In this document: in pieces, positions 1 to 52,155 of the stretch | Numbering within the stretch: position 1 is the first letter of the stretch | Layout of the letters: each line of letters begins with the position of its first letter | Assembly (NCBI GenBank): GCA_965222855.1 | Contig: CBDCUL010000007.1 | Coordinates: 5,343-69,342 of the forward strand | Direction: 5' to 3' | Length of the DNA: 64,000 bases | DNA from: Mycoplasmatales bacterium | GTDB lineage: Bacteria; Bacillota_I; Bacilli_A; Mycoplasmatales; JABABV01 | The notes under the pieces: model-generated | Databases searched by the model: none | Told to the model about the DNA's origin: nothing | What the model saw: the letters and a program-made list of their open reading frames with translations, nothing else | Translations under genes and position numbers: made by a program

Positions 1-1
1 C

Positions 2-481
2 TTTTGTCCGCTTAGTGTAGATGCATTCCATTACAACAATGTTAGAGTTCACCAGGCGCAGAAGCGGTTGCTATATAGGTATAAGGTTCTTATTTGTTTC
101 CTCACATTTGCCTTCTAAATATTCATTCTAAAGAATCTCAGATTATACAACTTGTATGTTATATTTGAATCCATTAGTGTGAATTCCTGTGGGTTTAATG
201 TGACCTACCATTTCCCAGTATTCTCATTACTCGAATCTACTCAGCATATACTCCATCAAATCAGTGCCTACTTTCAGATATTGGGACACTTGATAGATAT
301 TTTTGCATATTTGAATTTCAATCTAATCAATTTGCTATTAATCTATTTCATTACCAGAAAGAATTTCAAAAGAATGCCCTATTGCAGCAAGAAGTATCGC
401 TATTGTTATCAAGAATACTCTGCACCCTTGTTATCTGATACTAATAAAAATAACTTTTCTATTCTGTTTGTAATGAGCTAA
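2..481 (+). pseudogene. 3' fragment of a paralog of the 1346..2539 membrane protein; cut by the window start and carrying an in-frame TAA at 116..118
   Basis: The frame of track ORF 152..481 stays collinear with the C-terminal ~150 aa of the 1346..2539 product back to nt 2 (DAFHYNNVRVHQAQKRLLYRYKVLICFLTFAF*IFILKNL vs DAFHLNNTKVYLEQRRLLKLHKTLIYFLLFIFELHILKDL). The TAA aligns with a Glu codon of the paralog. Confidence 0.5.
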
Positions 482-1345
482 TTGTATTTGTTGTTCATTA
501 TTCATCATTTCATTCATTATTGTATTTGGAAACTATAATAATTAGAATATCTTATCCTCATTATCTTTTCTCTCTGTATGCACTTAAGTCAAATATACAT
601 ATATTTGTTATGCATTTCTGTTGAGAAGGTTTCCCATTAAATAATATATGTTAACAACAATCACAAAAGTTCAACAACAAAACCCAAATCTATTCAATAT
701 TACTACACTTAAAAGTACAGTTCACGAAAATATCTTAGGTACCTCCTAATGTAAACTTTTGAAATGTGTTCCACAAAATAATAATATCAACGCTTGAACT
801 TATCTAGATCTAAATTCGAATGTGTCAAAGGCAATACCAATACGCCAACCAAACGTTATACAAAGGGATTAGTTTTATAGGAAATATACTCGAGTTTATT
901 AGAGGGAAAGAAAGCACTGCAATGATTACTGGTGTGTATATGCTTACATCAATGAATTTGTGTGTATTACCAGTAATAGTGACTACACAACGGAGACTCC
1001 GGAACATGGAAATATATATACTAATGTAGAGTAAGCAGTGTAAGTATACTTTCTCTGCATAAGAGATCTAATTACTCCACTTAATGAATAGATTTGTAAC
1101 TAATATTCTAATAATCTAATAATAATATGGGCAAATAATATAATAAAGCAATATTGAAGTATAATGAATCCTGAATATTATACTTACTACATGGGAAATA
1201 TAAACAGAAATAATACAAACTTATATCTGAAATACTACACAATTAATTTAATTTTCACAAAATGGGTCAAAAATAATAATGTAGTATATACAATAAAAAT
1301 TAAGTAAATAATCATGATTCATGAATAATAGAATGTGTTTCTAAC

Positions 1346-2539
1346 TTAGGATAATAAGGGATCAGAAAATCCTTGATATCTATAGCGATAGATCTTCTTA
1401 TTGTAGAAATTCATTCTCTTTAAACATTTCAGAAAGAGAATATAGATAAATATCAAATTGATTACTACCATATTGAAATTGAAGATCAGTTCAATCACGG
1501 ATGCAGATATCAAAAGATACCAACTGATTCTATAAAGGATATGGCTGAGAGAGTCGGGTATTGTGAACACGGGAAAAGAGAAAGTGACATGAAACCAGCA
1601 AGAGTTCACACTGATAGATTCTAATATCATATACAAGCTGTATATTAGGAGATCTTTCAAAATGTGTAATTCGAAGATAAACAACAGAAAATAGATGAGT
1701 GTCTTATGCAGCTTTAATAATCTCCTCTGTTCTAGATATACCTTTGTATTGTTAAGATGGAACGCATCTATAATACGACTGTTCATTGCAGGAAAGAATT
1801 TCCTTCTTGCGATGTACAACACGAAAAAGAAAATAATTTGATTTTTCAAACTATAAGCTATTTTACAAAATAGGCTCACAGATGGAATCATTAAAGGTAC
1901 AGCAATAATAAGATTAATAGTTAATCCTATCAAGATGAAGCGAAGAATAACTTTAACTCTCAGTTCGTTTCTAGCAGCATAACTCAAGTGGAGGAGGGAT
2001 GCACCAAACATCCAAATCAACATCGAAAACGAAATGTTGTTAATTAATAAGCCAAAAATGTTTAACAGAATCATACCAAATCTATTGTCATATATGTTAG
2101 CTAGAAATGTATTTGAAATGAACTCGCAGTTCGGATCAATGGAGACTGGGATAGCCGGAAGCGGATCTAAAAGCCACGAAAATCCCCAAATATTAAAAAC
2201 CAAGCAATAACTCAGTTCAAAGCAAAGGAAGACAAGAAATATGGAATTTCGTAAGATAGTCTCTTTCTGCATGAAGAGACGATTCGCATAATCATGACCA
2301 GAATCGAGATAAATCAGAGTGACGAGTCTCCTTTTATTTCGTACATGTGAAATTATATCACATATGACGTAAATTAGCCAAAATATACAAAGTAAAGTGT
2401 ATACAAAACAAAACATTTGGTTCATGTAATAAACATCACTGCGAACGGAGTACAAATAGTCCATGTTGTTTGAACTATTTGAAAAATTTTGAGCTGACAT
2501 TGTATTTAAATTTAAATTGAAGAATATCTGATTATACAC
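1346..2539 (-). CDS. multi-pass (about 7 TM) membrane protein of unknown family, written in the standard code
   Basis: 397-aa ORF uninterrupted in the standard code with about 7 long hydrophobic segments. All 5 Trp codons are TGG and no TGA read-through is needed, unlike genes right of 2.9 kb. It is flanked by several hundred nt with no convincing coding sequence. Confidence 0.55.
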   Translation of the reverse strand: MYNQIFFNLNLNTMSAQNFSNSSNNMDYLYSVRSDVYYMNQMFCFVYTLLCIFWLIYVICDIISHVRNKRRLVTLIYLDSGHDYANRLFMQKETILRNSIFLVFLCFELSYCLVFNIWGFSWLLDPLPAIPVSIDPNCEFISNTFLANIYDNRFGMILLNIFGLLINNISFSMLIWMFGASLLHLSYAARNELRVKVILRFILIGLTINLIIAVPLMIPSVSLFCKIAYSLKNQIIFFFVLYIARRKFFPAMNSRIIDAFHLNNTKVYLEQRRLLKLHKTLIYFLLFIFELHILKDLLIYSLYMILESISVNSCWFHVTFSFPVFTIPDSLSHILYRISWYLLISASVIELIFNFNMVVINLIFIYILFLKCLKRMNFYNKKIYRYRYQGFSDPLLS

Positions 2540-2909
2540 TTCTGAAATGAAACTGAATGCATGATAAATCCTATAGATATTTATACTGAGGGAATCCAGT
2601 ATATAGGATACGTATTATGTATTATCATAAATTGAACCCTGAATTATAGTTCAAGGACATTACACATACTTGATAGAATGCTGATCCTACAGTAGATATG
2701 ACATCAATACATTAAGTATTCAGTAATTCATTATTAGTTATAAACAAGTGTAATCACAACAGATAGTAAATTAACCCAAGGAGATATTAAAATAAATTCC
2801 AATAGAGATGTCCCTTTACTTTTGCTATTTACTACAATATAGTGGCCCAGTATTGAATTGACTGCCTTGCTTGTACTAAACAGTCCTTCCATTTACAAGC
2901 AAAGATAGT

Positions 2910-3458
2910 TTAGATATTATAATTATTTTTAAAAACCATTTTAAACTCAACACAAAATGCTATTTCAATAATAAAGTTTTTATATTCTATTTTTATGACT
3001 TTATTACTATTAGATAATTTACAATTAAGTAATCTACTCTGCAAATATGAATAAACTAACTTTTTAAACGTTATAAATTTTAAAATACTTGTAGTTTTAA
3101 AATTATTATTTGTTGGAACATCTATGCATTTAGACATTTCTTTAGGTCATTTGTTAATAAATTTTTTATATGATTCTTTGCTGCGTATGAATGAATATAA
3201 AGAACATTGATATCCATTCAGCAAAGCATATGTATCAATATCACTTGGCGGAGTATTTCCATAACTTATATGAATACTAGTTTTACGATCATAAGAACCA
3301 TGATGAAGAACTTCTATTCCACTAATCTTTAAACCGCTTTTATCAGATAGTTTTTTGATGATATCTTTATCTGATAATAATTTTTTAACATTTTTTAACA
3401 AATCCATACCGTATTTTGGGGCTTTACCTTTTTTTACTAGTATATCTGTATTAACCAT
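2910..3458 (-). CDS. minimal Pol-beta-fold nucleotidyltransferase, SMODS/CD-NTase-like, 182 aa
   Basis: ATG at 3458 lies 8 nt after AAGGAGAG. Code-4 read-through of TGA 3147..3149 joins track ORFs 3147..3512 and 2910..3137 in frame, ending at TAA 2910..2912. NTase signature EVLHHGSYDRKTSIHISYGNTPPSDIDTYALL (GS...DxD), with a third acidic strand KCIDVP about 40 aa downstream. Confidence 0.6.
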
Positions 3459-3462
3459 CACT

Positions 3463-4143
3463 TTAACTCTCCTTGACCTTGTTTTTATTATGTCCAAATG
3501 AAAATCGATCAATAAAGTCGCTAGTATATGTATAACTTAATATTTCGTTATTTTCAATTACTAATTTAGCATGTCCATAGAAATCATGATAATTAGTAAT
3601 ATCATCTTTTAATTTTCGAGAGTTTGCTATATCACGTGAAAAATTAAATTTAAACTCAAATTCAAATTTATTTTTATTTATTCTTTTTCAATGACAAAAC
3701 TCTGAATTCGAAGCAGCACTATTAACATTATCAGTAATAGCTTTAGTTAATATGATTATTTCATTTGCTCATCAGTTATAACTGATTGTTATCTTTAATT
3801 TATAAAAGGTTTTCTTTAATTTGGTTTCTAATTTTTGATTAACTTCTAAATTAGCTTCTTTGATTTCACTATATAAATTACCAAATAAAAAGCCTTCACA
3901 TTCTTGAACAAATTCTTTATTCAAGAATTGCTTCATTGGTTTTTTTATAGTTAATCATTTAATAATTCCAGCAATACATATGAAGCGAAATACTTTTCAT
4001 ATACCAAAACTTAAAACAACAGTTAAAATCAGAATATATCAAGAATTATTGTGGTGTAATTCTCATTTAAATAAAAATGCATATATAGCCAAAAATACTA
4101 TATCACTAGTATTTATAATCAAATTACTTTTTGTTGACTTCAT
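3463..4143 (-). CDS. membrane protein, 2-3 N-terminal TM helices plus ~160-aa soluble C-terminal domain (effector-like), 226 aa
   Basis: GGAGG RBS then ATG at 4143. I checked every codon and the frame is open to TAA 3463..3465 when 7 TGA are read as Trp. Hydrophobic stretches IVFLAIYAFLF, WYILILTVVLSFGIW and FRFICIAGII. The stop lies 4 nt before the ATG of the NTase gene, consistent with translational coupling. Confidence 0.6.
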
Positions 4144-4224
4144 ATTTTACCTCCGATCATTATTTTATTTATATTGTATTGCCTTAAATTATCTTCGTTT
4201 TTTGTGATTTTTAACACAATTACG

Positions 4225-4233
4225 ATTATAACA
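4225..4233 (-). promoter_or_regulatory. extended -10 promoter (TGTTATAAT) for the TM-protein/NTase operon
   Basis: The reverse complement of attataaca gives TGTTATAAT about 80 nt upstream of ATG 4143 and downstream of the hairpin at 4266..4287. Confidence 0.4.
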
Positions 4234-4265
4234 CTACCATTCGATAAAAGCTTTTTAAATATAAC

Positions 4266-4287
4266 AAAAAGCACAAATGTGCTTTTT
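4266..4287. terminator. hairpin terminator separating the TPR gene from the TM/NTase operon
   Basis: aaaaagcac-aaat-gtgcttttt: a perfect stem flanked by A-run and T-run, so usable on either strand. Confidence 0.5.
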
Positions 4288-4345
4288 GATTTTTAAAATA
4301 TGTACCTAAAAATATATTATATATTACTTATAAATTTGTAGTTAG

Positions 4346-4780
4346 TTATTTTTTATTATCGTATTCTCAGTTACCTCTTCTTTCGCTATATTCCATTGCT
4401 CGCGCATTATAAAATTTACCTAATTTAATATTAGGTGCTTCTTTTTCTAATTTAAAGAACATTCCAATTATATCCTGAAAAATAACGGCTTTGTTAATAT
4501 TGGGGTACAATATTTGATCACATGTATTTATTGCATCTTCGTATAACGCTTCTTTTAAATTTGATTCTGTAGCATGTTCTATTCATTTAAACAAAGTAAA
4601 AGCTTTAGCAATCATTGCGTTAAAAAATGTTGGATCTTTTAAAAATGATTTGTGGTAATTTTCAACTGCCTCTTTGTATTTTTTATTTTTAATACAAAGA
4701 TTCCCATCTTCATAATATTCTTTTGAACTTTTACTAAGGTTTTCGAAAGTTTCTTGTTTAATATTGTTTATATCCTTCAT
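4346..4780 (-). CDS. TPR-like repeat protein, 144 aa
   Basis: Track ORF 4583..4780 continues through TGA in frame to TAA 4346..4348. Helical repeats of TPR type (KYKEAVENYHKSFLKDP, LKEALYEDAINTCDQIL, GKFYNARAMEYSERRGNW). Confidence 0.5.
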
Positions 4781-5026
4781 TCGATTTTCCTACTTTCTAT
4801 TAATTTAAATTAGTTATTTTTTAATATAGTACCTTCTAATATAACAAAATAACTCTATGTTTAGTTCGTATTTTAATGTTGATGTGTTATTTTTGTTTTT
4901 ATAATTTATTAACACAAAAATAATTATAGCATCAAATTTTAGGGTTTTTCAAGGATTTTTATTTATAAATAACTGAAAATTATTCAATAATTTTGCATAA
5001 TTTTTTATCAACCAATATATTTATTA

Positions 5027-5264: not shown

Positions 5265-5762
5265 TTGAAAACTCATTTGAAGAAAATTGAAAAAGCGATC
5301 ATCCCCAAATTTATTGTTGATGATCGTGCAAACGCTTTAGAGTGGGATAAACGGATGGCTATTCCTGCAAAAGGAGCATTTTATTATAAAATGTACCTTT
5401 TGGAAAATATCTTGCAAAAACCACTTAATTTCTTAGAGTTAATTAATTTTGAAATTTTGGAAGAAGCTGATGTTGAATCAACTAGTTTTGAACTAGAATT
5501 AATCCAAATGAAATATATTAATCAGTTCGATAGTATTTGACGTGGTTTCAATGGTTATCATGCCATTTATTTTAAGTTAAGTAATTGATTACAATATACT
5601 AAAAATAAAGATGAAGAAGACCATGTTAAAAAATTAATGAAAATAAATGAAGCGACAATTAAGGAATTAAGTAAACGTAAGGATACTCCTAGAATGTGGT
5701 TGTTATTTAATTTAGGAAGGAAAGCAGAATACGAAATATTGTTTAGAAAATATATGTCATAG
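5265..5762 (+). CDS. hypothetical protein, ~165 aa (start uncertain)
   Basis: Track ORF 5265..5540 reads through TGA to TAG 5760..5762. A 5'-truncated second copy lies at 7573..7947. There is no clear RBS at the TTG start. Confidence 0.4.
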
Positions 5763-5796
5763 ATTGTTACTATAAGCAATGCTACATAATAATAAA

Positions 5797-5829
5797 AAAC
5801 AAATAAACTAATTATTTATTTGTTTTTTT
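5797..5829. terminator. bidirectional rho-independent terminator between convergent genes
   Basis: aaacaaataaa-loop-tttatttgttt followed by a T-run. Confidence 0.5.
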
Positions 5830-5923
5830 AGTTTTACTATATTATACATTATGAAATTAATTAAAATAATTTAATATTTCAGAATCGCATATTATTTTAA
5901 AACATTATCTTAAATTATACATA

Positions 5924-7480
5924 TTAAACTTGATAAAGACCATCATTAGTACTAGCGTATATTGTATTATCAATTTTTGTTATTCAATAAATTACAACAT
6001 TGGAAGGTATAGATGTGTTTTTGCTAAAAGTTTTACCATCATCAGTTGAAGTGTAAAGACCATCATCAGTAGTTGCGCATATTATATTATTGATTTTTGT
6101 TATTTTACTAATTTTGGCATCCGAAGGAATAGATTTATTTTGAATGAATATTTTACCATCATCAGTTGAAGTATAAAGGCCAGAATTAGCACCTACATAT
6201 ATTGTATTATCGATTTTTGTTATTTGGTTCATCCCAAATGCATCAAAATATTTATTTTTAGTGAAAGTTTTACCATTATTGGTTGAAATGTAAAGATCTG
6301 TTTTAGTATTAACATATATTCTATTATCAATTTTTGTTATTTTACTAATTTCAGCATCCGAAGGAATAGATATATTTTGGATAAAAGTTTTACCATCATC
6401 CGTTGAAATATAAAGGCCATAATAAAAAGTTGCAATAAATATTATTCTATTATCAATTTTTGTTATTTTACTAATTTCGGCATCTGAAGGCATAGATATG
6501 TTTTTACTAAAAGTTTTACCAGCATCAGTTGAAGTATAAAGACCAGCATAATCACTATTAATATATAATGTGTTATTGATTTTTGTTATTTCGTTAATTC
6601 CGGTATCTGAAGGTATCGATGTGTTTTTGCTAAAAGTTTTACCAGCATTAGTTGAAAAATAAAGGCCCATTCGAGTACAAACATATATTGTATTATCAAT
6701 TTTTGTTATTTCGTTAATTCCGGAATCCAAAGATATAGCTGTATTTTGGATAAAAGTTTTACCATCATCCGTTGAAATATAAAAACCTGTTTTAGTATTA
6801 ACATATATTCTATTATCAATTTTTGTTATTCAATAAATTACAACATTGGAAGATATAGATGTGTTTCGAGTAAAAGTTTTACCAGCATCAGTTGAAAGAT
6901 AAAGACCCATTCCAGTACAAACATATATTGTATTATCTATTTTTGTTATTTTGTTAATTCCGGAATCCGAAGATATAGCTGTATTTTGAGTAAAAGTTTT
7001 ACCATTATCCGTTGAAATATAAAGGATATTCCTATAAACTCCCGTTATAACATATATTGTATTATCTATTTTTGTTACTTGGTCAATCATTTTTGAATGT
7101 ATAAATGTATTTTTAATAAATTTATAATCTAAATCATCATTATATTTTCATTGATTCATATTATATTTGATATCATTATATTTAATCGTAAAAGACGCTA
7201 TCAAATTATATGCTGAATTAGTTATATTTACAGAAATTGTTTTCTTAGCATTATCGAACTCGAAATTAGCTAAAGATAATTGTGATGAGACATTATCTTT
7301 TCAATTTTGCATAGAACTACCTTTTATAATATCTTTTGATGAGTCGCTTGTTGCATCTTTTTTAAAATCTGCTCAAGATTCTTCAGATTTATGACTACAA
7401 CTAGTTAGAATCATAGTATTTAAAGCTATTGGTAAAATCACGCCAAAACTTATTAAACTTTTTTTAAATAATTTCTTCAT
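5924..7480 (-). CDS. BNR/Asp-box repeat (beta-propeller-like) lipoprotein, 518 aa
   Basis: Track ORFs 5984..6730 and 6830..7090 are in one frame with ATG 7480. The signal peptide ends in the lipobox ILTSC. There are about 11 repeats of ~40 aa, each with an Asp-box-like S-T-D-D/A-G-K-T-F and ITKIDNTIYV. Ends at TAA 5924..5926. Confidence 0.7.
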
Positions 7481-7572
7481 ATTAAACTCCTGTTTATTAT
7501 CGCTATTAAAATCACTATTGATTAAATAACATTATACAATATTTATTAATCTAAAAGTATTATTATTATTAT

Positions 7573-7947
7573 AAAATCTACCTCTTGGAAAATATCTTGC
7601 AAAAACCACTCAATTTCTTAGAGTTAATTAATTTTGAAATTTTGGAAGAAGCTAATATCGAATCAACTAGTTTTGAACTAGAATTAATCGAGATGAAATA
7701 CATTAATCAGTTTGATAGCATTTGACGTGGCTTTAATGGTTATCATGCAATTTATTTTAAGTTAAGTAATTGATTACAATATACTAAAAATAAAGATGAA
7801 GAAAATCACGTGAAAAAATTAATGAAAATAAATGAAGCAACAATTAAAGAATTAAGTAAATGTAAGGATACTTCTAAAATGTGATTATTATTTAATTTAG
7901 GTAGGAAAGCGGAATACGAAGTTCTTTTTAAAAAATATATGTTATAG
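7573..7947 (+). pseudogene. 5'-truncated copy of the 5265..5762 gene
   Basis: Collinear with codons ~45-165 of 5265..5762 (LENILQKPLNFLELINFEILEEA...), with the same TGA positions and ending TAG 7945..7947. The N-terminal part and any start context are missing. Confidence 0.5.
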
Positions 7948-8044
7948 ATAAAATAAAAAAATAAATAAAGAAATAATTCTTTATTTATTTTTTAGTTTTA
8001 CTATATTATAAATTATAAAATTAATAGATAATGATTTTAAAACA

Positions 8045-9361
8045 TTATCTTAAGTTATGAGTATTAAACTGATAAATACCATTAAATATAGTTAGGATAA
8101 ATATTGTATTATTGATTTTTGTTATTTGGCTAATGAAGGTTGAAGGTATAGATGGATTTTTGATCAAAGTTTTACCATCATCACTTGAATTGTAAAGACC
8201 AATATCAGTACCAATATATAATGTATTATCTATTTTTATTATTTGCTCAACTATCTCATCTGAAGATATAAATTTATTTAGGATGAAAGTTTTACCATCA
8301 TTAGTTAAAGTATAAAGACCATGATTAGTGCAAACATATATTGTATTATCGATTTTTGTTATTTGTAAAATTAGAGTATCTGAAGATATAGATGTATTTT
8401 GAGTAAAAGTTTTACCATCATTAGTTAAAGTATAAAGACCACGATTAGTGCAAACATATATTATATTATTGATTTTTATTATTTGGTCAATTTGGGTATC
8501 CGGAGGTGTAAATGTATTTTTGGTAAATATTTTACTATCATCACTTGAATTGTAAAGACCATTATTAGTGCAAACATATATTGTATTATCGATTTTTGTT
8601 ATTTTGGTAATTTTGGAATCCAAAGGTATAGATGTGTTTTTAGCAAAAGTTTTACCATCAGCACTGGAATTGTAAAGATTATGATTAGTGCAAACATATA
8701 TTGTATTATCAATTTTTGTTATTTGTAAAATTAGAGTATCTGAAGATATAGATGTATTTTGAGTAAAAGTTTTTCCATCATCCGTTGAATTGTAAAGACC
8801 ATGATTAGTGCAAACATATATTGTATTATTGATTTTTGTTATTTGGATAACTACAACATCCGAAGGAATAGATCTATTTTGAGTAAAGGTTTTAGCATCA
8901 TCAGTTAAAGTATAAAGACCATCGTGAGTACAAATATATATTATATTATCAATTATTGTTATTTGGATAACTGCAACATCCGAAGGTATCGATGTATTTT
9001 TACTGAATTTATTATCTAAATCATCATTATATTTCCATTGATTCATATTATATTTAATATCATTATATTTAATTGTAAAAGATGCTATCGAATTAGATGA
9101 TGAATTAGTTATTTCTACAGAAATTATTCTTTTAGTATTATCAACATTGAAATTACCTAAAGATAATTGTGATGATAGATTATCTTTTCACTTTTGCATA
9201 GAACTACCTTTTATAATATCTTTTGATGAGTCACTTGTTGCATCTTTTTTGAAATCTGCTCAGGATTCTTTATGACTACAACTAGTTAGAGCGATAGTAT
9301 TTAAAGCTATTGGTAAAATCACGCCAAAACTTATTAAACTTTTTTTAAATAATTTCTTCAT
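8045..9361 (-). CDS. BNR/Asp-box repeat lipoprotein paralog, 438 aa
   Basis: Track ORF 8045..9046 is in frame with ATG 9361. The first ~110 aa are near-identical to the 5924..7480 product, including the lipobox LTSC. About 8 repeats with STDDGKTF / ITKIDNTIYVCT. Confidence 0.7.
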
Positions 9362-9416
9362 ATTAAACTCCTTCTTATTATCTAATTATTAGCACTATTG
9401 ATTAAATACATTATAC

Positions 9417-9610
9417 AATATTTATTAATTTAAAAGCATTATTGTTACAAATGATTAGTAGTATATGATGTAGTTAATTTTGCAAATAAATATTAATCAA
9501 GTGGACTTTTTATATAACATAGTTATAAAAAGGAGACTAATATGAAATTAATAAATCTTAAAAAAGAAGGATTAAAAATCCATGGGATACATCACATTCG
9601 AATCAACAAC
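9417..9610. repeat. copy 2 of the ~190-nt intergenic module (see 5027..5215)
   Basis: The sequence aligns by eye with 5027..5215, including aaaaggagactaatatgaaattaataaatcttaaaaaa. Confidence 0.6.
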
Positions 9611-9776
9611 TTTTGAATTAAAATTGGATAATAATCATAACTTAAAATGAATTATACATTATTACGGTGATGAAGATCAATCTAAAAAAGAAAATAAATG
9701 ATTGCCAATAATAAATAGTTATTTTGAAAACGCCAATATCATATTAAAAAAATCATCTGATTTTTTTAAAGACTAA
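9582..9776 (+). CDS. small hypothetical protein, 64 aa (weak call)
   Basis: ATG 9582 to TAA 9774..9776 with two TGA read as Trp. In the 5027..5215 copy the equivalent ATG is ACG and the frame closes early, so it may be a decaying gene. Confidence 0.25.
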
Positions 9777-9936
9777 TCTTTTATTAATATAACCTAACAA
9801 AATACAAGAAAAGCCATTATATAATAATGACCCATTTTATCTTTTGTCCTTATTATCTTTCTTTGATAAAATTATAGTATATAGTAATACTGTTAATAAC
9901 TAATGATTGCATCAAAGAAATAATGAGGTTTAGTCT

Positions 9937-11085
9937 ATGTTTAAAAATAAATTATTACGTATTGGGTCGGTTGGAATTATGAGTCTGGGACTACTTAGTA
10001 TTAGTGCTAGTGCGCTTGTGGCTTGTGGTCATAAAAAGCATACTCCATCAAAATATAATTGAACTACTTTTTTAGCGGCCGCTAAAAAAGCTAGTGCAGC
10101 TGAAATTGTTGCTCCAAATAAAACAGCAATTGGCTGAGGTGATGTCCCTAATGCACAATTAGTTAAACAAAAAGAACCCATCATTACTGATCATAATATT
10201 GTTGTCCAAATTTATGCTAATCCAATTTGAGAAATTGCCTCATTTTCAATTTCAGCACCAGTTGATTACCAATATGATGCCAATAGTTGAACATGCAGCA
10301 TCTACCCACGATTAGTTCCTAATGGAACCTGAGATCAGTTTAAATATTTGGCAACTAAAGTTAGTCCAAATGATTTACTAAAAACTGCTAAAGTTGCCAA
10401 AAATTATGCTTCTTTCAAATGAGTAGGTAAAGCAGATACTAACGTGTGACAAAAAGATCAAGTTGCTGAATTTGACACTTATGGTGGCGATGGCACTACT
10501 AAAGTTGACCCTGTTGATATTATGCAAGGTGCGCCTAAAATTGACGAAGCTAATAAAACAATTAGTGCCATCATTTCAATTAAAGATAAAACTAAAGAAG
10601 GTACTTGCTATAGCAATCCTATCAAAGCAGTCATTAAATATAATAATGGCAATAACTATAATCTAAATCAATGAGTATTTAGTAAAATCAAACAATTACA
10701 ATCATTTGTTAGATGAACAACAATGTGACAAGCTGGCGATAAGGCAGCTCATACAGTCCAATTCTCGACATTCATTAAGCGCTATTGAACTGATTCAAGT
10801 CATTCAATGAATACTTTTATTTGATTTTGAATCCATTGAGACAATCATGGTGCTATTGCAAGTTATAGTCGTCGTGGTTCTGGATGAGATTGAAATACTA
10901 AAAACGGGACAACATATGAAATTTGATTTTGAATTACAACTAACACCGGACCATTACCAACGCATAGTGAATTACATCTAAGATTTAATTTTATGTATAA
11001 CGATATTAGTAATCATAATATTGGAACAGCTTTTAATTATGTATTTGTTACTAATGGTGCGCTTGTTTATCCACTAATTAGTTAA
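9937..11085 (+). CDS. lipoprotein, tandem paralog 1 of 5, 382 aa
   Basis: GAGG RBS, ATG 9937, signal peptide with lipobox LVACG. The frame is open to TAA 11083..11085 only with many TGA read as Trp. Conserved core W-x-K-x(3)-AEFD-x-YGG...TISAIISIKDK...NPIKA. Confidence 0.7.
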
Positions 11086-11284
11086 ATATTTTTTGATGTT
11101 AATAAAGTCATTATAAATATAAAAAATTTTAAATAATTATTTAAAATTTTTTTATGCTTAATTTAATAATAAAACAAAATCACAACCTTAGTTGTTGTCA
11201 GTGTATTAGTTTGATAAAATAATAGTATATAACAACACTTTTAATAATTACTCATTTTATCGAAGAAACAATGAGGTTGAGTCG

Positions 11285-12421
11285 ATGTTTAAAAATAAAT
11301 TATTACGGATTGGGTCGGTTGGAATTATGAGTCTGGGACTACTTAGTATTAGTGCTAGTGCTGTTGTTGCTTGCGGTCATAAAAAACCAGGTTTAAAATA
11401 TAATTGAACTACTTTTTTAGCTGCCGCCCAAAAAGCGAGTGGTGCTGAAATTGTTGCTCAATACAAGCAAACAATTGGTTGATACGACGTTCCGAGCAAC
11501 AAACTAATTAAACAAAAACCCGAATTCATCACAGGTCACAGTATTACAATTCAAGTTTATGCTAGTTCAATTTGGGAAGTTGCTTCATTTTCGATTAGTG
11601 CACCCGTGGACTATAAATATAGCGCAATTAATTGAAAATTAAGTATTAAACCAAAATCTGTGCCAACTGGTAGCTGAGAGCAATTTAAATATTTAGCAAG
11701 GACAATCAATGCGGCAACTTTACTAAAAACTGCTAAAGTTGCCAAAAATTATGCTTCTTTCAAATGGGAAGGTAAAGCAGATAGCAATGTTTGAAAAAAG
11801 ACTGATATAGCTGAGTTTGATCAATTTGGTGGTAGTGGTGGGACTAAAGCTGACCCAATTAATGTTATGCAAGGTGCTCCTAAAATTGACGAAGTTAATA
11901 AAACAATCACTGCCATCATTTCAATTGAAGATAAAACTAAAGAAGGCACTTGTTTTAGCAATCCAATCAAAGCAGTTGCTAAATATAATAATGGTGAAAA
12001 TTATGATCTTAGTAAATGATCATTTAGCAAAGTTAATCAATTACAATCGCATGCTAAATGATTAAGTATTTTTGCTTTTGAATTAGGAAAATGAAATAGC
12101 CTTGATTTTGCTCCTTTTACTGCAAGATCTTGAACTGCTTCTAATCATATCAGCACTAGTAATGATTGATTTTATAGCAATTGACAATTTAACCCAATTA
12201 CTAGTGTTATAAGAAGTATTCATGGTTGAGATACAAATACACCAACAGCAATGATTTATGAATTTGGTTATGATGTTCATTATAATATTTGACTTCCAGC
12301 TACAGGTTCATTTCATATCAAATTTTTATTCACTTATTATAATGTAAAAAATCATAATGTTGGTAATGCGTATAATTATGTCTTTTCACCTGATAGCTCA
12401 ACATTAGTTTACCCAAGCTAA
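11285..12421 (+). CDS. lipoprotein, tandem paralog 2 of 5, 378 aa
   Basis: Nearly the same signal peptide as paralog 1 (MFKNKLLRIGSVGIMSLGLLSISASAVVACG). Continuous in code 4 to TAA 12419..12421. Confidence 0.7.
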
Positions 12422-12618
12422 ATCTTTGCATTTTTTTAACTATAATACACTAGTAATAAAAAAATTTAAATTAATAATTTAAATTTTTTTATTACTGCTC
12501 TTCACATTTAAAATCAAGTGCTTAGTTGTTGTTGCGATATTAGTTTGATAAAATAAGATTATGAAGTAACTAAATTAATTATAAATTATTTGGTGATTTA
12601 AAAAGCGAGGCTTGATCT

Positions 12619-13737
12619 ATGTTTAAAAAGCAATTTTTTAGAATTAACGCAACATCTTTAATTGCAATTGGCTCATTATTATTAGGTCTAAATAGTTTAG
12701 TATCTTGTGGTCACAAAAGTAAAAAAGCAACATTTGCGACATTTTTAGCTGCTGCTGAAGCTACTTCGGCAGCAGCAATTGTTAATAACGCTAATCCAGA
12801 AGCAATCGCGTGACATAAAGTGAAACTTAATGATTTATTCAAACAAGGAAAACCAGTTATCATTGGCGAAACTATTACTCAACAAATTTATGCTGGCTCA
12901 ATTGGTGAAGTTGCTAAGTTTGAAATTAGTCCATCATATGATTATGTATATCGACTAAGATATTGAGGATGTGTTAAACAACCAAAATTTGAACCTGATG
13001 GGACGTGATTTCAATTTAAAACATTATCATTAATGGCAACAGCAGAGCAGCTTTTAAAAGCTGCTAGATTAGCAACTAATTGGTCTTCTTTTAAATGACA
13101 AGGACAGCCCCGTCTTAATGTGTGACAAAAATCTGAAAAAGCTGAATGAGATATTTATGGTGGCGCAGGTACTCGTGATGATCCACTTAATCTAATGCAT
13201 GGTCGCCCAGTAGTTGATGAAGTTAAACAAACAATTAGTGCGATCATTTCAATTAAATATGATGATAAAAAAGGTTGTTATGATGCTGATCCAATTAAAG
13301 CAATCATTCAATATACTCCCCATCTAAATTATCATATTAATTTATGAAAATTTAGTAAAATTAAACAAATTCAATCAATTGATAAATATAATCAAATTTT
13401 TAAAAATGAAGTTATTGCTGCAGATGATTTTCCAGATTTTGGTTCTAATAATTGAACTGATGAATCGCATATCTTAGATGCTTATCATTATTTATATAAC
13501 AATCAGCGTGATTTTGGAACAATTGCAAAAATTACATTTGATAGCGCTAGTTTTGTATCGGCTAATGATTATGGGATTACGAAACAAATTGTTTTCAACG
13601 TGAAAGCCAGTTGAGTTAATGTCCAATTCCGCCTCCGATTAACTTTTAGCTTTGTAAATGTTAATAATCAAAGAATTGGGTATGCATTTAATTATGTCTT
13701 TCCCGAAACTGACGCAATCATCATTATCGATAACTAA
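12619..13737 (+). CDS. lipoprotein, tandem paralog 3 of 5, 372 aa
   Basis: Track ORF 12619..12813 extended through TGA codons to TAA 13735..13737. Lipobox LVSCG and the same conserved core. A 19-bp perfect hairpin overlaps the stop. Confidence 0.7.
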
Positions 13738-13864
13738 ATATCATTCTGCAATTAAATGATATTTAGTTATCGACTATTAGTTTGATAAAATAATATTATA
13801 TATATAATATAAAACAAAAAAGATTATTGAAAATTATTTATTATTCAACAGCGAGGTAGAAACG

Positions 13865-15028
13865 ATGTTTAAAAATAAATTGTTTAAAATTAGCTTAGCA
13901 TCAATCGTGATTAGCGGTAGTATTGTTGCGGGATTAGGTAGTATATTTAGTCTTGTATCGTGTGGTCATAAAAGTAACCCACCAATAGCTGATTGAAATA
14001 GTTTTTATAAACAAGCTATCAATGAATCAACAATCAATATTATTAATAATGCTAATCCTTTAACAACTAAAGGTTGAAAAGATGATTATGAACCAGCTGA
14101 TTTTACAGCTGATAAGCCAATTGTTGTTAAGCAGACAATTTCAATTGTCATTCATGCTGTGCTATTAAAACAATTTGCCACTTTTCAAATTAGAGCATCA
14201 TCTGACTTTATTTATAATGTGAAAAGTTGAGAATGTATCAAACAACCACAATATAATGACAAAGCAGTTTGAGATTTCTTTAAAATAAGCGCGACCGCCG
14301 AAAGTGCTCCTAAATTATTAGTGCAAGCTAAGACATCACAATCTTGAAATAGTTTTAAATGAGACGGTGATGCTAGTATTAATGTTTGACAAAAATCTGA
14401 TCAAGCTGAATTTGATGTATATGGTGGTCTTGGTCAACACAATGACCCGCTTAATCTAATGCGTGGCTTTCCTAGTTTTGATGAAATTAATCACACTGTA
14501 AGTGCAATTATTTCAATTAAAGATAAAAATGGCACTTATGATGCTAATCCGATTAAAGCCACAATTAAGTTTGATACTTTAATTAATAAAAAATATTCTA
14601 TTGAAGATTGAACATTTAGTCAAGCAACTCAATATCAGTCATGAGAGAAAAATCAAGCCATTTTTAATAGTCAAGTTACTATCGCTAAAAATGATATTAA
14701 AAAATTTCAAAGTCATACTTGAGATAATCAAGACCATAGTGAAGATGCGCAAGCTTTTTTAAAAACTATTGGTTTACCTGGGATTACTAGAATTTTAACT
14801 TTTAAAAGTTCTGAAGTTAATTTTCAAATTGATTCATCAGGAATAACTTCGGTAATTGTTCTTAATGTTAAAGATCAATTTAACCATATGTTAGCAGAGT
14901 TTGATGTAAAATATACTTTTAAATTTAGAGATCCAAGTAAAAGTACGACTACCGGGAGCGCCTTTAATTATATCTTTGATACTCATAATAGTGTTCATCC
15001 GACTCATAAGCAACATTTTAAAATTTAG
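13865..15028 (+). CDS. lipoprotein, tandem paralog 4 of 5, 387 aa
   Basis: ATG 13865, lipobox LVSCG, family core (AEFDVYGG..., TVSAIISIKDKNG), TAG 15026..15028. Confidence 0.65.
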
Positions 15029-15046
15029 AACACGAGGTTAGAAATA

Positions 15047-16237
15047 ATGTTTAAAAATAAATATTTTAAATTAGGAAGTATTTCAACTATGGCTATTGGT
15101 CTAAGTGTTGGCGGGAGTGTTGCTTTTGTATCTTGTGGTCATAAGCACAAAGCAACGTTCGGAACGTTCGGAACATTCCAAACTGCAGCATTAAAAGAGA
15201 ATGTTGCTAATATTGTTAAGAATGCCAAAGTTAAAGCAAGTAGTTGAGTTGGATTTAAAGATGATGATTTTACTAAACAAGGGCTCCCAACAATTGAAGG
15301 TCACAAAATCACAATTAAAATTTATGCCAAATCCAACTGAACAATTGCTTCTTTTTCAATAACTGCTCCTGCTAATAATGTCTATCGTGTTGGTGATTGA
15401 GAATGTAGCAACCAACCAGCATTAGTACCAAATGGAACATGAGAGCAATTTAAAACACTAGCTTTAGCCGAAACACCAACCAACCTCCTAAGCACTGTTA
15501 AAAAAGTACCAAATTATAAAAAAAATTTTAAATGAGATGGTGATGCTAATATTAATGCTTGAGCCGAAAATGCGATCCCAGAATTTGATGTATATGGTGG
15601 TAGTGGTACTACTGGAGATCCATTAGATGTGATGCATGGACAGCCTTTAATTGATCAATCTAAGCAAACAGTTACTGCTATTATATCAATCAAAGATAGC
15701 ACTAAAGAGGGCTTATATGATGCTGATCCAATCAAAGCAGTTATTAGATATACTAATAACGTAAACTACCATGTTAGTGATTGAATCTTCACTCCAATAG
15801 TTCAGAGTCAATCATTCATTAAATATAAATCAATTTTTGAAACTGAAATTGCTGTTGCTAAAGCTGTGAGTAAAGACACTTTTGATAGTTTCGGAAGTCA
15901 TAATTGACTTGGAAATCTTTCGCAAATGCCGAATGGTCACAATAGTGTTTCCTTGATAACTCATAATGATCACAGTACGACTGCTACTGATTTTTTATCG
16001 GGAGCTGGGTTTTTTTCAGTAATTGATGATCGGAGATTTAATCGTGTCGATGATTTTACTACTATTCAAGGTGGTTTAATTTCTGCTATTGTATTTGATA
16101 TAATTACTGGAGTTGGTGAAAAAGATGGTCAATTTCGCCTAGTATTTACTTTTAAATTTGTTGATGATAACCATCATATTGGAATGGCTTTTAATTATTT
16201 ATTTCCGAAAGCTCATGCTTTATATTTTACTAATTAA
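15047..16237 (+). CDS. lipoprotein, tandem paralog 5 of 5, 396 aa
   Basis: Track ORFs 15047..15247 and 15926..16237 share one frame. Lipobox FVSCG. Starts 18 nt after paralog 4 with a GAGG RBS. Confidence 0.65.
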
Positions 16238-31818: not shown

Positions 31819-34209
31819 TTATTCCCTAATTTGAGCTGGAATATTATTAGTTACATAATCAACAATTTTATGTAGGATTATTTCTAAATCTTTTTTATTA
31901 TATGTTGTTGTTGTTTGAGTGATTCAATATTTAACACTTAAAACTTTTTGGTGCTGATTTTTTAATGTTTCATCTTGATAAAAATCAAAAATAGTTACAT
32001 CGGCTATCGCAACGTCCGGCGTTGCTTTTATTAGATTTATTAGTTCTCCAGCTAATAAATCAGCATGCACGACAAATGAAATATCGCGCTCAATTTGAGC
32101 TAATTTAGAAACTGCAGCAATATAAATTGGTTTCCGTAATTCAAATAAAGCATCTAGGTCCAAACTAATAATGATTGGACTAAATTTATTATAAAAATTC
32201 GGATGAGGTTTTCCAAGATAACCAATCACTTGTTGGTTAATTAGAATTACCGCTGAAGTCCCAGGATGAAAGTGAGGGTGATTCGTTAACGGTTGATAGC
32301 TTACTTGCTCAATTCCTTGAGTTGCAATTATCGCATTAACTAATCCTTTAGCAGTATAAAAATTATTACTTAATGATAAGTCATTAAAGAGACTACTTTT
32401 AACAAGATCACCATTAATTACTAATGATAGATGACGTGTTGCTTGACGATCGCCATAATAAACGTTTGATATTTCAAACAAATTAACATCTTTAGCATAG
32501 TTATTAGCATTGTATTCTAAAATATTTAATAATGAACGAATTAATGATAGACGCATTACTTGATGTGATGAAGATAATGGGTCTTTAATTCTAATTGGAT
32601 TTTGATAATTAAAAATATCAAAATCAGCTAAGTTAGTTTCGCTAACTAAGCTATAAGTTTTCGTATTATAAATATTTTGGCCACTTAATAGACGCATTAG
32701 TTGTTGTTCTCATAAATAACGTGCATCAGGATAAGTGTTTTCTTCATTACCAATTGGTGCTAAAACTTTAATTGTATCGTAATTTAGCATTCTAATAAAT
32801 TCGGCAATTAAGTTGACATCTAGTTCAATATCTTGACGATATTGCGGCGCACTAATACTTAAGTTGTTATTTGTTAGTTTAATGTTAAATCCTAAACGTT
32901 CAAGATGTGTGATTGCGTCTGTTCAATCTTGGGAATAACCTAAAAAACTATTTAATTTAGCAATGCTAATCTTAAATGTTTTTGGTTTAGCTATTTTTGG
33001 TTTAATACCAACAATATTAGAAATAGTGATTGTTGGACTAATCTGACTTAATAAATTAATGAATAAACTCAAACTATCAGCAATTGTTGCTGCGTTAGTG
33101 CCTTTGGCATGTTGATTAAGATTATTATTTAAGTTATTAAATGATTTAATATATTGGCGCGCTATTAAATTACTATAGCTACTAGAACTAATTAATAATT
33201 TAGTAGATTTGGCATCATGCATAAATGCTAAATTATTAATTGATGCCCCAATTGCTAAAATATCACTATGATTTTTTAGGACTACTTTATTGCTAAATTG
33301 ATGGGCTAATAATTGATTACTTAAATCTAATTGATAATTTTTAGGATCGTTAATAATTTCTAAATCAAAATTATTAACTTTATGAGCATCTAAAATATCA
33401 ATTGGATTTCCAGTTAAATTGTTAACATAATTAGCTAAATCAGTAATTAAATCAACTGATTTAATATTAATCCCAATTAAATATTTAACTAGTCATCAAG
33501 GTGATGGCAGTGCTTGATAATTATCGATGATGACATTACTATATGCATAGTAATCGGGCGTCTTAATTTTAATTGTTGTGGGGTTTTTAAATGCCGCTAG
33601 CGGCACTTTTTTAAATGTTGGTAATAGTAATGGTTTATTTAATGATGCGCCTAATTCAAGGCCAACATTAAATAAACAATGCATATCACTACGATCAGCT
33701 AAAATTGCTAATTCAATAAAAGCAGCATCTAATTCTAAATGAGCTAGTGCTGAATTACCTAAAAATTTATCAGCACATTCAAAAAGGAAAATACCATCTT
33801 GTTGCTCAGCTCCTAAATTAGCACTACTAATGCCAATTTCACTTAAACTACAAAGCATTCCGGCTGATTCGACACCCCGAATTTCACTAATTTTAATAGT
33901 TAGTTTTGGTAGTTTAGCTCCTGGTAGCGCAACGATAACATTAGCATCAAGCTTGACATTAGGCGCTCCACAAATAATTTGTTGAATTTGGTCTTGGTTA
34001 ATTTTAACTTGGCAAATATTTAAGCGTGATGCATTAGGATGTTTTGTAATTGAGATGATTTTCCCAACTACTAATTTATCACTAACTATTGAGCTTAAAT
34101 GATAAGTTTCTTCAACTTCAAAACCTAACTGATTAAAAGCGTTACTCGCTTTTTCTAAAGTTAGATTTGTTGCTAAAAGTTGGTTGATTTTTGATAAACT
34201 AAAACGCAT
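31819..34209 (-). CDS. pheT: phenylalanine--tRNA ligase beta subunit, 796 aa
   Basis: N-terminal tRNA-binding domain (VVGKIISITKHPNASRLNICQV). Track ORFs 33496.., 32923.. and 31924.. are in one frame. TGA 31924 is read through to TAA 31819..31821. Confidence 0.85.
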
Positions 34210-34214
34210 TGGTA

Positions 34215-35225
34215 ATTATCTCCTTGACTCAATTAATAGAATTTCTTTAAAAACGCGACATTATTATTATAAAATTCGCGAATATCAGTTACGTTGTATT
34301 TGATCATTGCGATTCGCTCAATCCCAATTCCAGCAGCAAAGCTCTGGAATTTTTGAGCATCAATATTAGCTTCAGTTAAAACATTAGGATGAAGCATTCC
34401 TGCTCCTAATATTTCAATTCAACGATTACGGAAGAAAATATCAACTTCAACTGAAGGTTCCGTAAATGGGAAATACGAAGGACGGAGACGGATTTTAACA
34501 TCTTGACCAAATAAATATTGGCACATTTCTAAAAGCATTCATTTTAAGTTAGCAAATGAAATACCAGGCCCAACATTAACAATGTCAACTTGGCTAAATT
34601 GGTGGGAATGAGTTGCATCATCGCTATCACGACGATAAACATTCCCAAATGAAACAATTTTAAAATGGTTATTAGTTTTTTCTAATTCCCGAATTGTATT
34701 AGCAGTACAATGAGTACGTAGTAAAGTTGCACTGTTAATATAAAAAGAATCTTGCATATCACGCGCTGGATGGTCTTTAGCTAGGTTTAATTTTTCAAAA
34801 TTATAAACATCTTCTTCAATTTCGTGACCTTCTGAAATTTGATAACCACGATTCATAAAGAAGTTTAAAATATCGTTTAAAACTAAATTTAGCGGATGAA
34901 TTTTACCGTTGGCAATATTAATTCCTGGTAAAGTAACATCGATTTTTTCAGCGGCAATTTTTTGATTAATAATTGTTGCATTGATTTGTTTAACTTGAGC
35001 GTTAAACAAATCATTTAAAGCGATCTTAATTTCATTAACTGCTTTACCAAAAGCAATCCGTTCTTGATGACTTAAAGTTGCCATCACACGCATTGCTTGA
35101 ACTAACTCTGATTTCTTACCAAGATAACGGGCTTTTAGTTGTTTTAAACTTTCAAAATCATTAACATTTTGTAATTCACTTTGGCAAGTTGCTAAAATTT
35201 TGGCTAAATTTTCTAAATTGCTCAT
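34215..35225 (-). CDS. pheS: phenylalanine--tRNA ligase alpha subunit, 336 aa
   Basis: Class II motifs ([40 protein letters not shown]). TGA 34539 is read through. The TAA 34215..34217 lies inside the pheT RBS. Confidence 0.85.
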
Positions 35226-35260
35226 ATAAAATCTCCTCTAAATTTTTAGTAATCTTGTTT

Positions 35261-36616
35261 TTATTTTAACATATTCCCAAAATCAGGCATTTGGAAATTG
35301 CCGCCTTTAGCGCCTTTACCAAACATTGATTTCATTTTATCCATTTGTTTTTTCATTTGGTCATATTGACGCAGTAGCGCATTAAATTCTTGCGCACTGC
35401 GACCACTACCTTTAATGATCCGTGCTTTTCGTTTTGGTTGTTTTAATAATTTAGGATTAATTCGTTCCGCCATTGTCATTGACGAAATAATTACTTCTGC
35501 TAAAAACAACGTTCTTTGGGCACGATCTTTTTGCTCATTCGATAGTTTAGGCATTCCCGGAATCATTTTTAATAATCCCCCAAGTTTACCCATCTTTTTA
35601 ATTTGACTTAGATTTTGCAATAAGTCATTCATATTGAATTTACCGCTAATAAATTTATTCATTGATTTTTTAGCAGCTTTTTCATCAATTACTTCACTCG
35701 CTTTTTCAATTAAACTAAGAGCGTCACCCATTCCTAAAATTCGGCGTGCCATCCGATCAGGATGAAAAACATCGAAATCTTTAACATGCTCACCAGTTCC
35801 AATAAATTTAATTGGAATATCTAGTAATTGTCTAATTGAAAGTGCCGCTCCAGCACGGGCATCGGAATCTAGTTGCGTTATAATTGAACCAGTTAATTTT
35901 AATTGTTGATCAAAACTAGTTGCCACATTAATAATATCTTGACCAGACATAGCGCTAACTACAATTAAAATTTCTTTTGGTTTAATAATCCTTTTTAGAT
36001 CAACTAATTCAGCCATTAGCGTTTCATCAAGATGTAAACGTCCAGCTGTATCAAAAATGACCGCATCAAATTGTTCATTTTTTGCTTTCTCAAAAGCCGC
36101 TTGAGCAATTGTTTGGGGCGTTGATTGCGATATACTAAAAACTTCAAATTGGTTTTGTTGACCAAGTTGAATTAATTGCTCAATTGCGGCTGGACGATAA
36201 ACATCACAAGCAACAGCTAAGATTTTAGTATAGTTATGTTTTTTTCTTAAATGAACTATCAATTTAGCAACGGTCGTTGTTTTACCAGTTCCTTGTAAAC
36301 CAACTAACATAATGGTTGATGGTTTAATTGATAAATTTAAATTTTGTTGTTTCGTACCTAATAAGCTCGTTAATTGATGATCAACAATCTTAATGATTTG
36401 ATGTTTAACATCTAATCCGGGCGTAATTTGAATTCCCACTAAAGCAGTTTTGACATTATTAACAAATAATTTAACAACTTTTAAATTAACATCAGCTTCT
36501 AAAAGCGCTAAGCGAATTTCACGCAACGTTAGTTGAATGTTTTCCGGCGTTAGCGAATTTTTTTTAGCAGCTTTATTAATCGCATTAGTGATTCGATTTG
36601 AAAAAAAATCTAACAT
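35261..36616 (-). CDS. ffh: signal recognition particle protein Ffh, 451 aa
   Basis: GTPase motifs GLQGTGKTT, DTAGR and TQLD, with a Met-rich M domain. Confidence 0.9.
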   Translation of the reverse strand: MLDFFSNRITNAINKAAKKNSLTPENIQLTLREIRLALLEADVNLKVVKLFVNNVKTALVGIQITPGLDVKHQIIKIVDHQLTSLLGTKQQNLNLSIKPSTIMLVGLQGTGKTTTVAKLIVHLRKKHNYTKILAVACDVYRPAAIEQLIQLGQQNQFEVFSISQSTPQTIAQAAFEKAKNEQFDAVIFDTAGRLHLDETLMAELVDLKRIIKPKEILIVVSAMSGQDIINVATSFDQQLKLTGSIITQLDSDARAGAALSIRQLLDIPIKFIGTGEHVKDFDVFHPDRMARRILGMGDALSLIEKASEVIDEKAAKKSMNKFISGKFNMNDLLQNLSQIKKMGKLGGLLKMIPGMPKLSNEQKDRAQRTLFLAEVIISSMTMAERINPKLLKQPKRKARIIKGSGRSAQEFNALLRQYDQMKKQMDKMKSMFGKGAKGGNFQMPDFGNMLK

Positions 36617-36673
36617 AATTATTACCTTTAGTTTTTAAGTTTTAAGTTACTTTAAGATTTATAATATTTATTA

Positions 36674-47958: not shown

Positions 47959-48234
47959 TAGTTTTAATTCCTTAATTTTATTAGTTTGATTTTTTAAATT
48001 TAGTTAGTTTCTTAATAATTATATTTTATAATAAAATTACAATTGATTGTTATTTTATGAATTTAAAAAACACTAACTAAATTATTAGTTAGTGTTTTTC
48101 TTATTTAACTATTTATTATTTTAATTCTTATAATCTATCAAAGTAATATTAAATTAGAAGAAGTGTTTTTATTAGTTATGTTGCAAGGTTTTAGTTAGAG
48201 GTTTTATCGTTGGTATTAGTTTTGTAGAAATCGT

Positions 48235-51942: not shown

Positions 51943-52155
51943 TTTGTTGATTCCTTTTTTTATTTTTTTACTTTTAAATAGTTAATTAATAATTTTTAAT
52001 ATATGTATACAATTAGCATTTTACCACATAAATCCTTTAAATAGGTTAAATTTTATAATTAATCACAATAAAAAAACACCAACTAATAATAGTTGGTGTT
52101 TTTTTGTTATTTAAATATTGTTTAATTAATTTTGTTGATCTTAAATTTATGATTA

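Follow-up and report, generated by a model that had tools for sequence, protein, structure and literature searches.

Near the left end of a 64,000-nucleotide stretch of DNA from an assembly assigned to a Mycoplasmatales bacterium (GenBank GCA_965222855.1, contig CBDCUL010000007.1; the whole stretch is called the window from here on), two adjacent genes are read on the minus strand. The upstream one encodes a protein of 226 residues with a hydrophobic N-terminus, and the downstream one, an open reading frame (ORF) of 182 codons, encodes a nucleotidyltransferase (NTase) of the polymerase beta (Pol-beta) type. An initial annotation, made from the letters of the sequence, took them for a membrane effector and a naturally small cGAS/DncV-like nucleotidyltransferase (CD-NTase), i.e., for a candidate minimal form of a cyclic-oligonucleotide-based antiphage signaling system (CBASS). 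The analysis described here arrives at a different picture of the enzyme: the NTase gene appears to be the first half of a full-length CD-NTase gene, cut at the point where the Mollicute DNA meets DNA of another origin. The parts of the locus on which this picture depends are the following, 2TM standing for two transmembrane (TM) helices.

1..2926, no strand: non-Mollicute, eukaryote-like DNA (GC content 0.30-0.34; 92-94% identity to repeat copies), abutting the truncated NTase gene
2910..2926, minus strand: tail of the NTase ORF, namely codons 179-182 (N-Y-N-I) and the stop codon TAA (2912..2910), assigned to the eukaryote-like DNA by base-by-base alignment to three repeat copies
2927..3458, minus strand: 5′ half of a CdnE-like CD-NTase gene, recognized by homology to relatives (codons 1-177, with codon 178 spanning the breakpoint)
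3463..4143, minus strand: candidate CBASS 2TM effector of 226 residues, with an intact ORF under genetic code 4 and weak syntenic homology to relatives

Both genes can be read only under code 4, where TGA encodes tryptophan: the effector gene (3463..4143) contains seven in-frame TGA codons and the NTase ORF (2910..3458) contains one. This is the code of the window overall, which reads as a code-4 Mollicute genome. ORFs of at least 100 residues cover it 1.23 times under code 4 and 0.50 times under code 11, and outside positions 1..2900 tryptophan is written as TGA 271 times and as TGG 14 times. The use of TGA as a stop had been named initially as a result that would undo the NTase; the codon concerned, at 3149..3147, specifies W104, and this residue is a tryptophan in all four known members of the family, which are described in the next section.

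The nucleotidyltransferase and its full-length relatives

What kind of enzyme does the 182-codon ORF encode? The Pol-beta signature on which the initial annotation was built is present, as HHGSY at residues 52-56 and SDIDTY at residues 72-77. Profile searches with the window protein itself go little further. The SMODS family of Pfam is matched below its threshold (19.1 bits against a cut-off of 26.5, E-value 0.0016), and scans against the PADLOC and NCBIfam profiles returned no match, and no cyclase model.

More can be learned from the relatives, although they are few. An exhaustive HMMER search with the window NTase found one remote relative, P0003 (371 residues, 31% identity, query residues 6-179 against subject residues 12-195, E 9.7e-11; E 1e-17 when the two proteins are compared pairwise), and a profile search added P0004 (377 residues) and P0005 (370 residues). 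All three carry a precomputed match to the C-terminal domain family CD_NTase_C (PF26305), and all three match the CBASS "Cyclase" models of PADLOC (best E 3.3e-21); the window protein itself has no match among these models. A profile of the family also finds the structures of EfCdnE (7x4c, E 5e-10, and 7x4f), RmCdnE (6e0k) and EmCdnE (6e0m), mainly via the C-terminal domain. An AlphaFold model of P0005, built from a four-sequence alignment, is of low confidence, with a predicted local distance difference test score (pLDDT) of 57.7; when this low-confidence model was submitted to Foldseek, RmCdnE 6e0k came first (E 9.7e-6, probability 1.0), followed by EmCdnE, CdnD, CdnC and DncV, with TM-scores of about 0.3. 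Hence, the assignment to the SMODS/CD-NTase type holds by way of three full-length relatives that match CBASS cyclase models and CdnE structures, and not by a direct above-threshold match of the window protein.

The family is rare: billions of proteins yielded four members, all of them on code-4 contigs, and the loci of the three relatives have GC contents of 21-27%. In a word-indexed search of a 5.8-billion-protein index, each of the two window proteins retrieved only itself. Scans with the family alignments gave no relative in GTDB species-representative contigs, JGI metagenome contigs or IMG/VR viral contigs. The window NTase used as the query against the GTDB species-representative contigs likewise gave no relative, and its own source contig was not retrieved.

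The four-way alignment makes it possible to ask which residues the family has kept. The invariant blocks are HGSY.R.T, SDIDiY, a tryptophan (the TGA codon of the window), N.NKVI and E.A.C..F, and G54-S55 and D73/D75 of the window protein are identical in four of four members. As for the third acidic strand, the initial annotation had proposed CIDVP, which is indeed found at residues 111-115. This segment aligns with FRLNN and FYISK, and D113 is not conserved, which makes CIDVP an improbable third catalytic strand. The only acidic residue after DxD that is invariant in all four proteins is a glutamate in a strand of the form vEiAiC, which corresponds to E165 in the window (IIEIAF, codon 2964..2966) and to E183 in P0005. 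When the family profile is aligned with EfCdnE by hidden Markov models (HMMs), this glutamate falls two residues before the expected catalytic aspartate of CdnE, in the aDvvP segment that we take to hold the canonical third aspartate, and the family has an alanine at the aspartate position (A185 in P0005). In this Mollicute lineage the third carboxylate may have been shifted by two residues.

The alignment also reveals where the window protein ends. It covers only the first ∼197 residues of relatives that are 370-377 residues long: the sequence stops 17 residues past the conserved E.A.C strand, at the equivalent of residue ∼197 of 370. The CD_NTase_C domain is absent from the ORF, and the C-terminal ∼175 residues are missing. 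With the full-length relatives as queries, tblastn matched only 3458/3440..2922 of the window, and no remnant of the C-terminal half was found in any of its frames. The fragment retains G54-S55, D73/D75, the TGA-encoded W104 and E165. What had been described as a stand-alone enzyme of minimal size is the N-terminal ∼177 residues of a CD-NTase of ∼370 residues, cut at 2925-2927, with a stop codon that comes from eukaryote-like DNA.

The breakpoint within the nucleotidyltransferase gene

The DNA to the left of the breakpoint differs from the rest of the window in several respects. An ORF in this DNA (1346..2539, minus strand) encodes a protein of 397 residues with multiple TM segments and uses TGG six times and TGA never. 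The GC content of this ORF at third codon positions (GC3) is 0.39, against 0.13-0.24 in the neighboring Mollicute genes. An inverted paralogue fragment of the same ORF lies at 152..481 on the plus strand. Codon usage thus switches at the junction, from TGG-only tryptophan and a GC3 of 0.39 to the TGA-dominated usage given above.

Searches of Pfam, NCBIfam and the PDB and of plasmid and metagenome collections gave no match to the 397-residue product. An exact-cluster look-up was more informative: a 384-residue form of this ORF shares a 90% cluster with a protein of the ENA contig ERZ25072730 ctg83083_307x_l (401,962 bp). A 21-kb piece of this contig, called L004, was examined. It has a GC content of 33.5%, only four ORFs of at least 150 residues, and three copies of the multi-TM gene. 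One further ORF, of 613 residues, has a weak precomputed match of the FAM200/ZBED5 type, and gave no Pfam or PDB match in local scans.

By blastn, each of the three L004 copies matches window positions 503..2925/2926 over 2.2-2.4 kb with 92-94% identity. In the base-level alignment, this identity continues up to 2925/2926 and collapses beyond, while the three L004 copies run on as host-like sequence past the corresponding position. The homology of the NTase ends at 2922; with the repeat identity ending at 2925/2926, it follows that codon 178 straddles the breakpoint. The compositional break at ∼2.9 kb that had been reported for this DNA is therefore real, but what it marks is the end of the Mollicute DNA, not the boundary of an accessory region or island.

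What produced the junction? A mis-assembly of Mollicute DNA with that of a host or cobiont is the explanation to which we lean, in which case a full-length gene may exist in the real genome, and the contig as deposited is probably a host/cobiont chimera. A genuine rearrangement in the Mollicute that killed the system is conceivable but doubtful, and little credence is given to Mollicute DNA integrated in a host genome. Considered as a whole, a biological junction, in which more than 60 kb of Mollicute DNA including the cassette moved into a eukaryotic host genome, or host DNA was captured by the Mollicute, with destruction of the cyclase gene in either case, is unlikely. The sharpness of the breakpoint (2925-2927), where no long shared repeat is visible at the join, is compatible with such an event, and so is the extent of the two partners, with at least 2.4 kb of host-like sequence on the left and 61 kb of clearly Mollicute sequence on the right. 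However, the genes in these 61 kb look fully intact under code 4, with 271 TGA codons for tryptophan, which argues against a long residence in a eukaryotic nucleus. In addition, the repeat continues as host-like sequence in all three copies of the other assembly, and assemblers often make chimeric joins where the sequence is AT-rich.

Could the NTase nonetheless be small by nature? It has been suggested that a 182-residue SMODS/CD-NTase works with its 2TM partner as a compact conflict system, and a version of this idea would make it a constitutive "decoy" synthase that restrains the effector, as in Panoptes. The resemblance is not trivial: Panoptes, an inverse-signaling system, also has a small synthase gene (OptS, of the mCpol type) beside the gene of an effector with two TM helices along with a beta-barrel-type domain (S-2TM-beta, OptE), so that minimal cyclases with such partners do exist (PMC12657218). 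Moreover, the fragment has kept GS/DxD and the conserved E165, and the effector gene to which it is translationally coupled has an intact ORF. Yet the explanation is very improbable. The Panoptes synthase is a minimal CRISPR-polymerase domain of the Palm type, while the window NTase is of the Pol-beta type and small through truncation. All three relatives have 370-377 residues and a CD_NTase_C domain, the last four codons and the stop fall within DNA with 92-94% identity to the eukaryote-like repeat, and no cyclase model was matched by the window protein. The ORF also lacks a terminator: a scan of 2600..4900 for terminator-like sites found none after the NTase stop, and the intact NTase gene of L001, one of the three loci of the relatives, has a hairpin immediately after its stop.

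The fold of these enzymes offers a further argument. CD-NTases owe half of their active-site cleft to the C-terminal helical domain, and since this domain is missing, the window cyclase should be inactive. As the sequence reads, the window copy consists of an intact effector and a synthase that is almost certainly inactive. Finally, one might see in the protein an MNT-type minimal nucleotidyltransferase, such as the antitoxin of HEPN-MNT pairs, or a different small Pol-beta NTase with no relation to cyclic-nucleotide signaling. This is hardly credible: the apparent size of about 180 residues, the GS/DxD motif and a weak NTP_transf_2 match (E 0.031; 15.1 bits, with the cut-off at 21) recall that group, but the size is an artifact of the breakpoint, the homology to full-length CD-NTase-type proteins of ∼370 residues is far stronger and collinear over the whole fragment, and the gene beside it encodes a membrane protein in which Pfam found no HEPN match.

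The membrane partner and the arrangement of the pair

The 226-residue protein was initially credited with two or three N-terminal TM helices followed by a domain rich in beta-strands, and the sequence agrees with both. Hydropathy indicates two to three hydrophobic segments: one spans about residues 7-25, and a second stretch, about residues 33-64, may contain two helices. The alternating motifs FEFEFKFNF and LSYTYTSDF are present. A single-sequence AlphaFold (AF2) model, of low confidence (pLDDT 59.6), places helices at residues 12-29, 34-45 and 49-73 and four long strands at residues 149-216.

Direct comparisons did not identify this protein. With the low-confidence model, Foldseek gave no meaningful match in the PDB; the effector profile gave none among PDB sequences, those of Cap15 included; and no meaningful Pfam or PADLOC match was obtained with the full-length protein or with its C-terminal domain alone. 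Two PADLOC hits were set aside: CARF_TM on the full-length protein (E 0.033), taken as noise from TM composition, and BrxC on the C-terminal domain, at chance level. A SLATT effector was rejected as well, no SLATT family having appeared in Pfam scans of the window protein and two of its relatives at E-values up to 1.

As with the NTase, it is the relatives that speak. In two of their loci, L001 and L002, the upstream genes are complete, and their products (217 and 242 residues) match PADLOC "Effector 2TM" models through the C-terminal domains: PDLC00686 (1.3e-5, 4e-4) and PDLC00703 (4.5e-5). The window effector is collinear with both proteins and has in common with them a C-terminal motif, DF.G...Y.SD..R[FY]SF. 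BLASTP relates it to the L002 protein with an E-value of 2.35e-5 (residues 91-217 against 100-227) and to that of L001 with 0.005. An HMM of the L001 and L002 proteins scores the window effector at 16.7 bits, where the best of 3000 shuffles reached 7.4 bits, and hhalign reports E 1e-3 at a probability of just 22%. Membership of the window protein in the CBASS 2TM-effector class is probable, not proven. Of the two architectures named at the outset, Cap15-like or SLATT, the first is supported by the 2TM-effector matches of the relatives, and the second is not.

Is the pairing of the two genes a matter of chance? Co-occurrence elsewhere had been proposed as a check, and a gene of the 2TM and beta type lies directly upstream of the NTase gene in all three other loci, hence in four out of four. 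The two genes are 4 nt apart in the window and overlap by 8-11 nt in L001, L002 and L003. In L003 the upstream gene is partial, a C-terminal fragment of 71 residues ending in ...IIDYFYSSDGKNKYSFVKEW. The L001 pair is flanked by a promoter-like site on one side and a terminator hairpin on the other, with no further gene between them. The operon contains no Cap2/Cap3, HORMA/TRIP13 or other ancillary genes, as is the rule for type I systems.

The cassette of L002 is intact (9283..11113; GCA_965191935.1, CBCZRF010000005.1) and consists of the 242-residue 2TM-beta gene overlapping a CD-NTase gene of 370 residues. Its neighbors are of the conjugation type: a TraG/VirB4-like ATPase, a pilin of a type IV secretion system, ParA, and a DEAD/ResIII helicase. 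This company suggests that the L002 cassette is carried on a Mollicute integrative conjugative element. Comparison of the neighborhoods of L002 and the window revealed no other homologous gene in common, and because nothing else is shared, the pair behaves as a mobile two-gene module.

The signals that surround the pair in the window were also read from the sequence.

3467..3474, minus strand: ribosome-binding site AAGGAGAG of the NTase gene, within the 3′ end of the effector gene
4150..4154, minus strand: ribosome-binding site GGAGG of the effector gene, 6 nt ahead of its ATG (4143)
4225..4233, minus strand: putative extended −10 promoter TGTTATAAT, a consensus match 82 nt upstream of the effector ATG
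4265..4288, minus strand: terminator-like hairpin between the TPR gene and the cassette, with a 10-bp stem, a 4-nt loop and a T-run on both strands

They agree with the organization first described. The effector stop TAA (3465..3463) is separated from the NTase ATG at 3458 by the spacer AGTG, an arrangement that fits translational coupling, and the ribosome-binding site of the second gene, read at 3474..3467, lies inside the first. An extended −10 element of the pair's own is found at 4233..4225, as a match to the consensus only, and the hairpin would insulate the pair from the neighboring TPR gene (4346..4780). Three terminator-like sites were found in 2600..4900, where 0.3 would be expected from shuffled sequence.

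A 45-nt direct repeat is present at 4189..4233 and 4887..4931, with 71% identity between its copies. Through it, the effector gene and the TPR gene each have a TGnTATAAT extended −10 upstream of them on the minus strand; the element in the copy upstream of the TPR gene (4887-4931) is the similar TGCTATAAT. A common promoter module seems to serve both transcription units. The TPR gene was considered as a third component of the cassette and discarded, as it has no counterpart beside the cassette in L002.

Other features of the window are unrelated to the pair. A duplicated two-gene module occupies 5265..9361: genes of 165 residues (5265..5762) and 120 residues (7585..7947), both on the plus strand and near-identical over their shared part, each adjoin a minus-strand lipoprotein gene with BNR/Asp-box repeats (5924..7480 and 8045..9361). 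Two tandem lipoprotein families with conserved signal peptides follow. The first, at 9937..16237 on the plus strand, has five paralogues starting MFKNKL...CGHK, and the second, at about 47068..60931 on the minus strand, has some ten paralogues starting MNKSKKLKILLTSF...SCG. Tandem lipoprotein arrays are typical of the variable surface-antigen loci of mycoplasmas. The housekeeping genes PheT, PheS, Ffh and DeoC are found within 31819..37336. At 90% identity, PheS, DeoC and Ffh have no cluster partner among about 15 billion proteins, so that the source organism seems to be an otherwise unsampled Mollicute species, known from one contig of 72.9 kb.

Comparison with known systems and significance

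Among known systems, the cassette comes closest to type I CBASS with a CD-NTase of clade E (CdnE) and an effector of the Cap15/S-2TM-beta kind, as in the CdnE-Cap15 system of Yersinia aleksiciae. Cap15 combines two TM helices with a nucleotide-binding beta-barrel; it oligomerizes and damages the membrane (PMC10419184). The Mollicute cassette resembles this system in being a two-gene operon, in having a synthase with the Pol-beta type of GS...DxD motif, and in the matches of its full-length relatives to CdnE structures and cyclase models. It differs in other respects. The Mollicute family has ∼10-16% identity to solved CD-NTases, as estimated from Foldseek alignments of the low-confidence P0005 model, and seems to have Glu...Ala where CdnE has the aspartate of aDvvP. 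The SMODS match is below threshold, Cap15 sequences of the PDB are not matched, the family has four members only, on code-4 contigs, and the window cyclase is without its C-terminal half. SLATT effectors are more distant: they too are predicted membrane effectors adjoining a SMODS-type gene, but they lack the beta-rich soluble C-terminal domain of the window protein, which has no SLATT match in Pfam.

All of this points, with good confidence, to a divergent and rare Mollicute cassette of the type I CBASS kind, in which the cyclase has been truncated by a breakpoint with eukaryote-like DNA. A number of points weigh against this reading, and they should be kept in view. The window proteins have no significant direct match to curated CBASS models, and the assignment is transitive, via only three relatives. 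The homology of the effector is weak, at 24-25% identity and with the low hhalign probability mentioned above, and both AlphaFold models are of low confidence, so that the beta-barrel of the effector is only putative. As the family seems to have Glu...Ala at the canonical site of the third aspartate, even the full-length relatives are no more than candidates for active enzymes. Lastly, the description of 1..2926 as eukaryote-like and repeat-rich is based on gene density, on codon usage and on a single weak domain match, and not on taxonomy.

How would such a cassette work? By analogy with CdnE/Cap15 type I CBASS, the CD-NTase of the intact copies (L001, L002 and L003) would make a cyclic (di)nucleotide upon phage infection. 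The soluble beta domain of the effector would bind this nucleotide, as expected from its family, and the bound effector, again judging from the family, would oligomerize, permeabilize the membrane and kill the cell before the phage completes its cycle. In the window copy, the NTase gene is cut after codon ∼177, the foreign DNA adds four spurious codons and a stop, and the effector would be left without its activator.

Mollicutes have few known phage defenses. A search of the literature for CBASS in Mycoplasma yielded incidental mentions and no description, and a paper on the Hepatoplasmataceae mentions CBASS only in passing, linked to a phospholipase.

The first lesson of the locus is one of caution: a "minimal" enzyme at a compositional break can be a truncation at a junction with foreign DNA, as this one appears to be, and the contig should be flagged. 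The second concerns the family, which, being rare and divergent, is a useful outlier for mapping the sequence space of CD-NTases and of 2TM effectors. The third reaches further: if the family is functional, then wall-less, code-4 Mollicutes would possess an immunity of the cGAS-like, cyclic-nucleotide type, carried in at least one genome among genes of the conjugation type.

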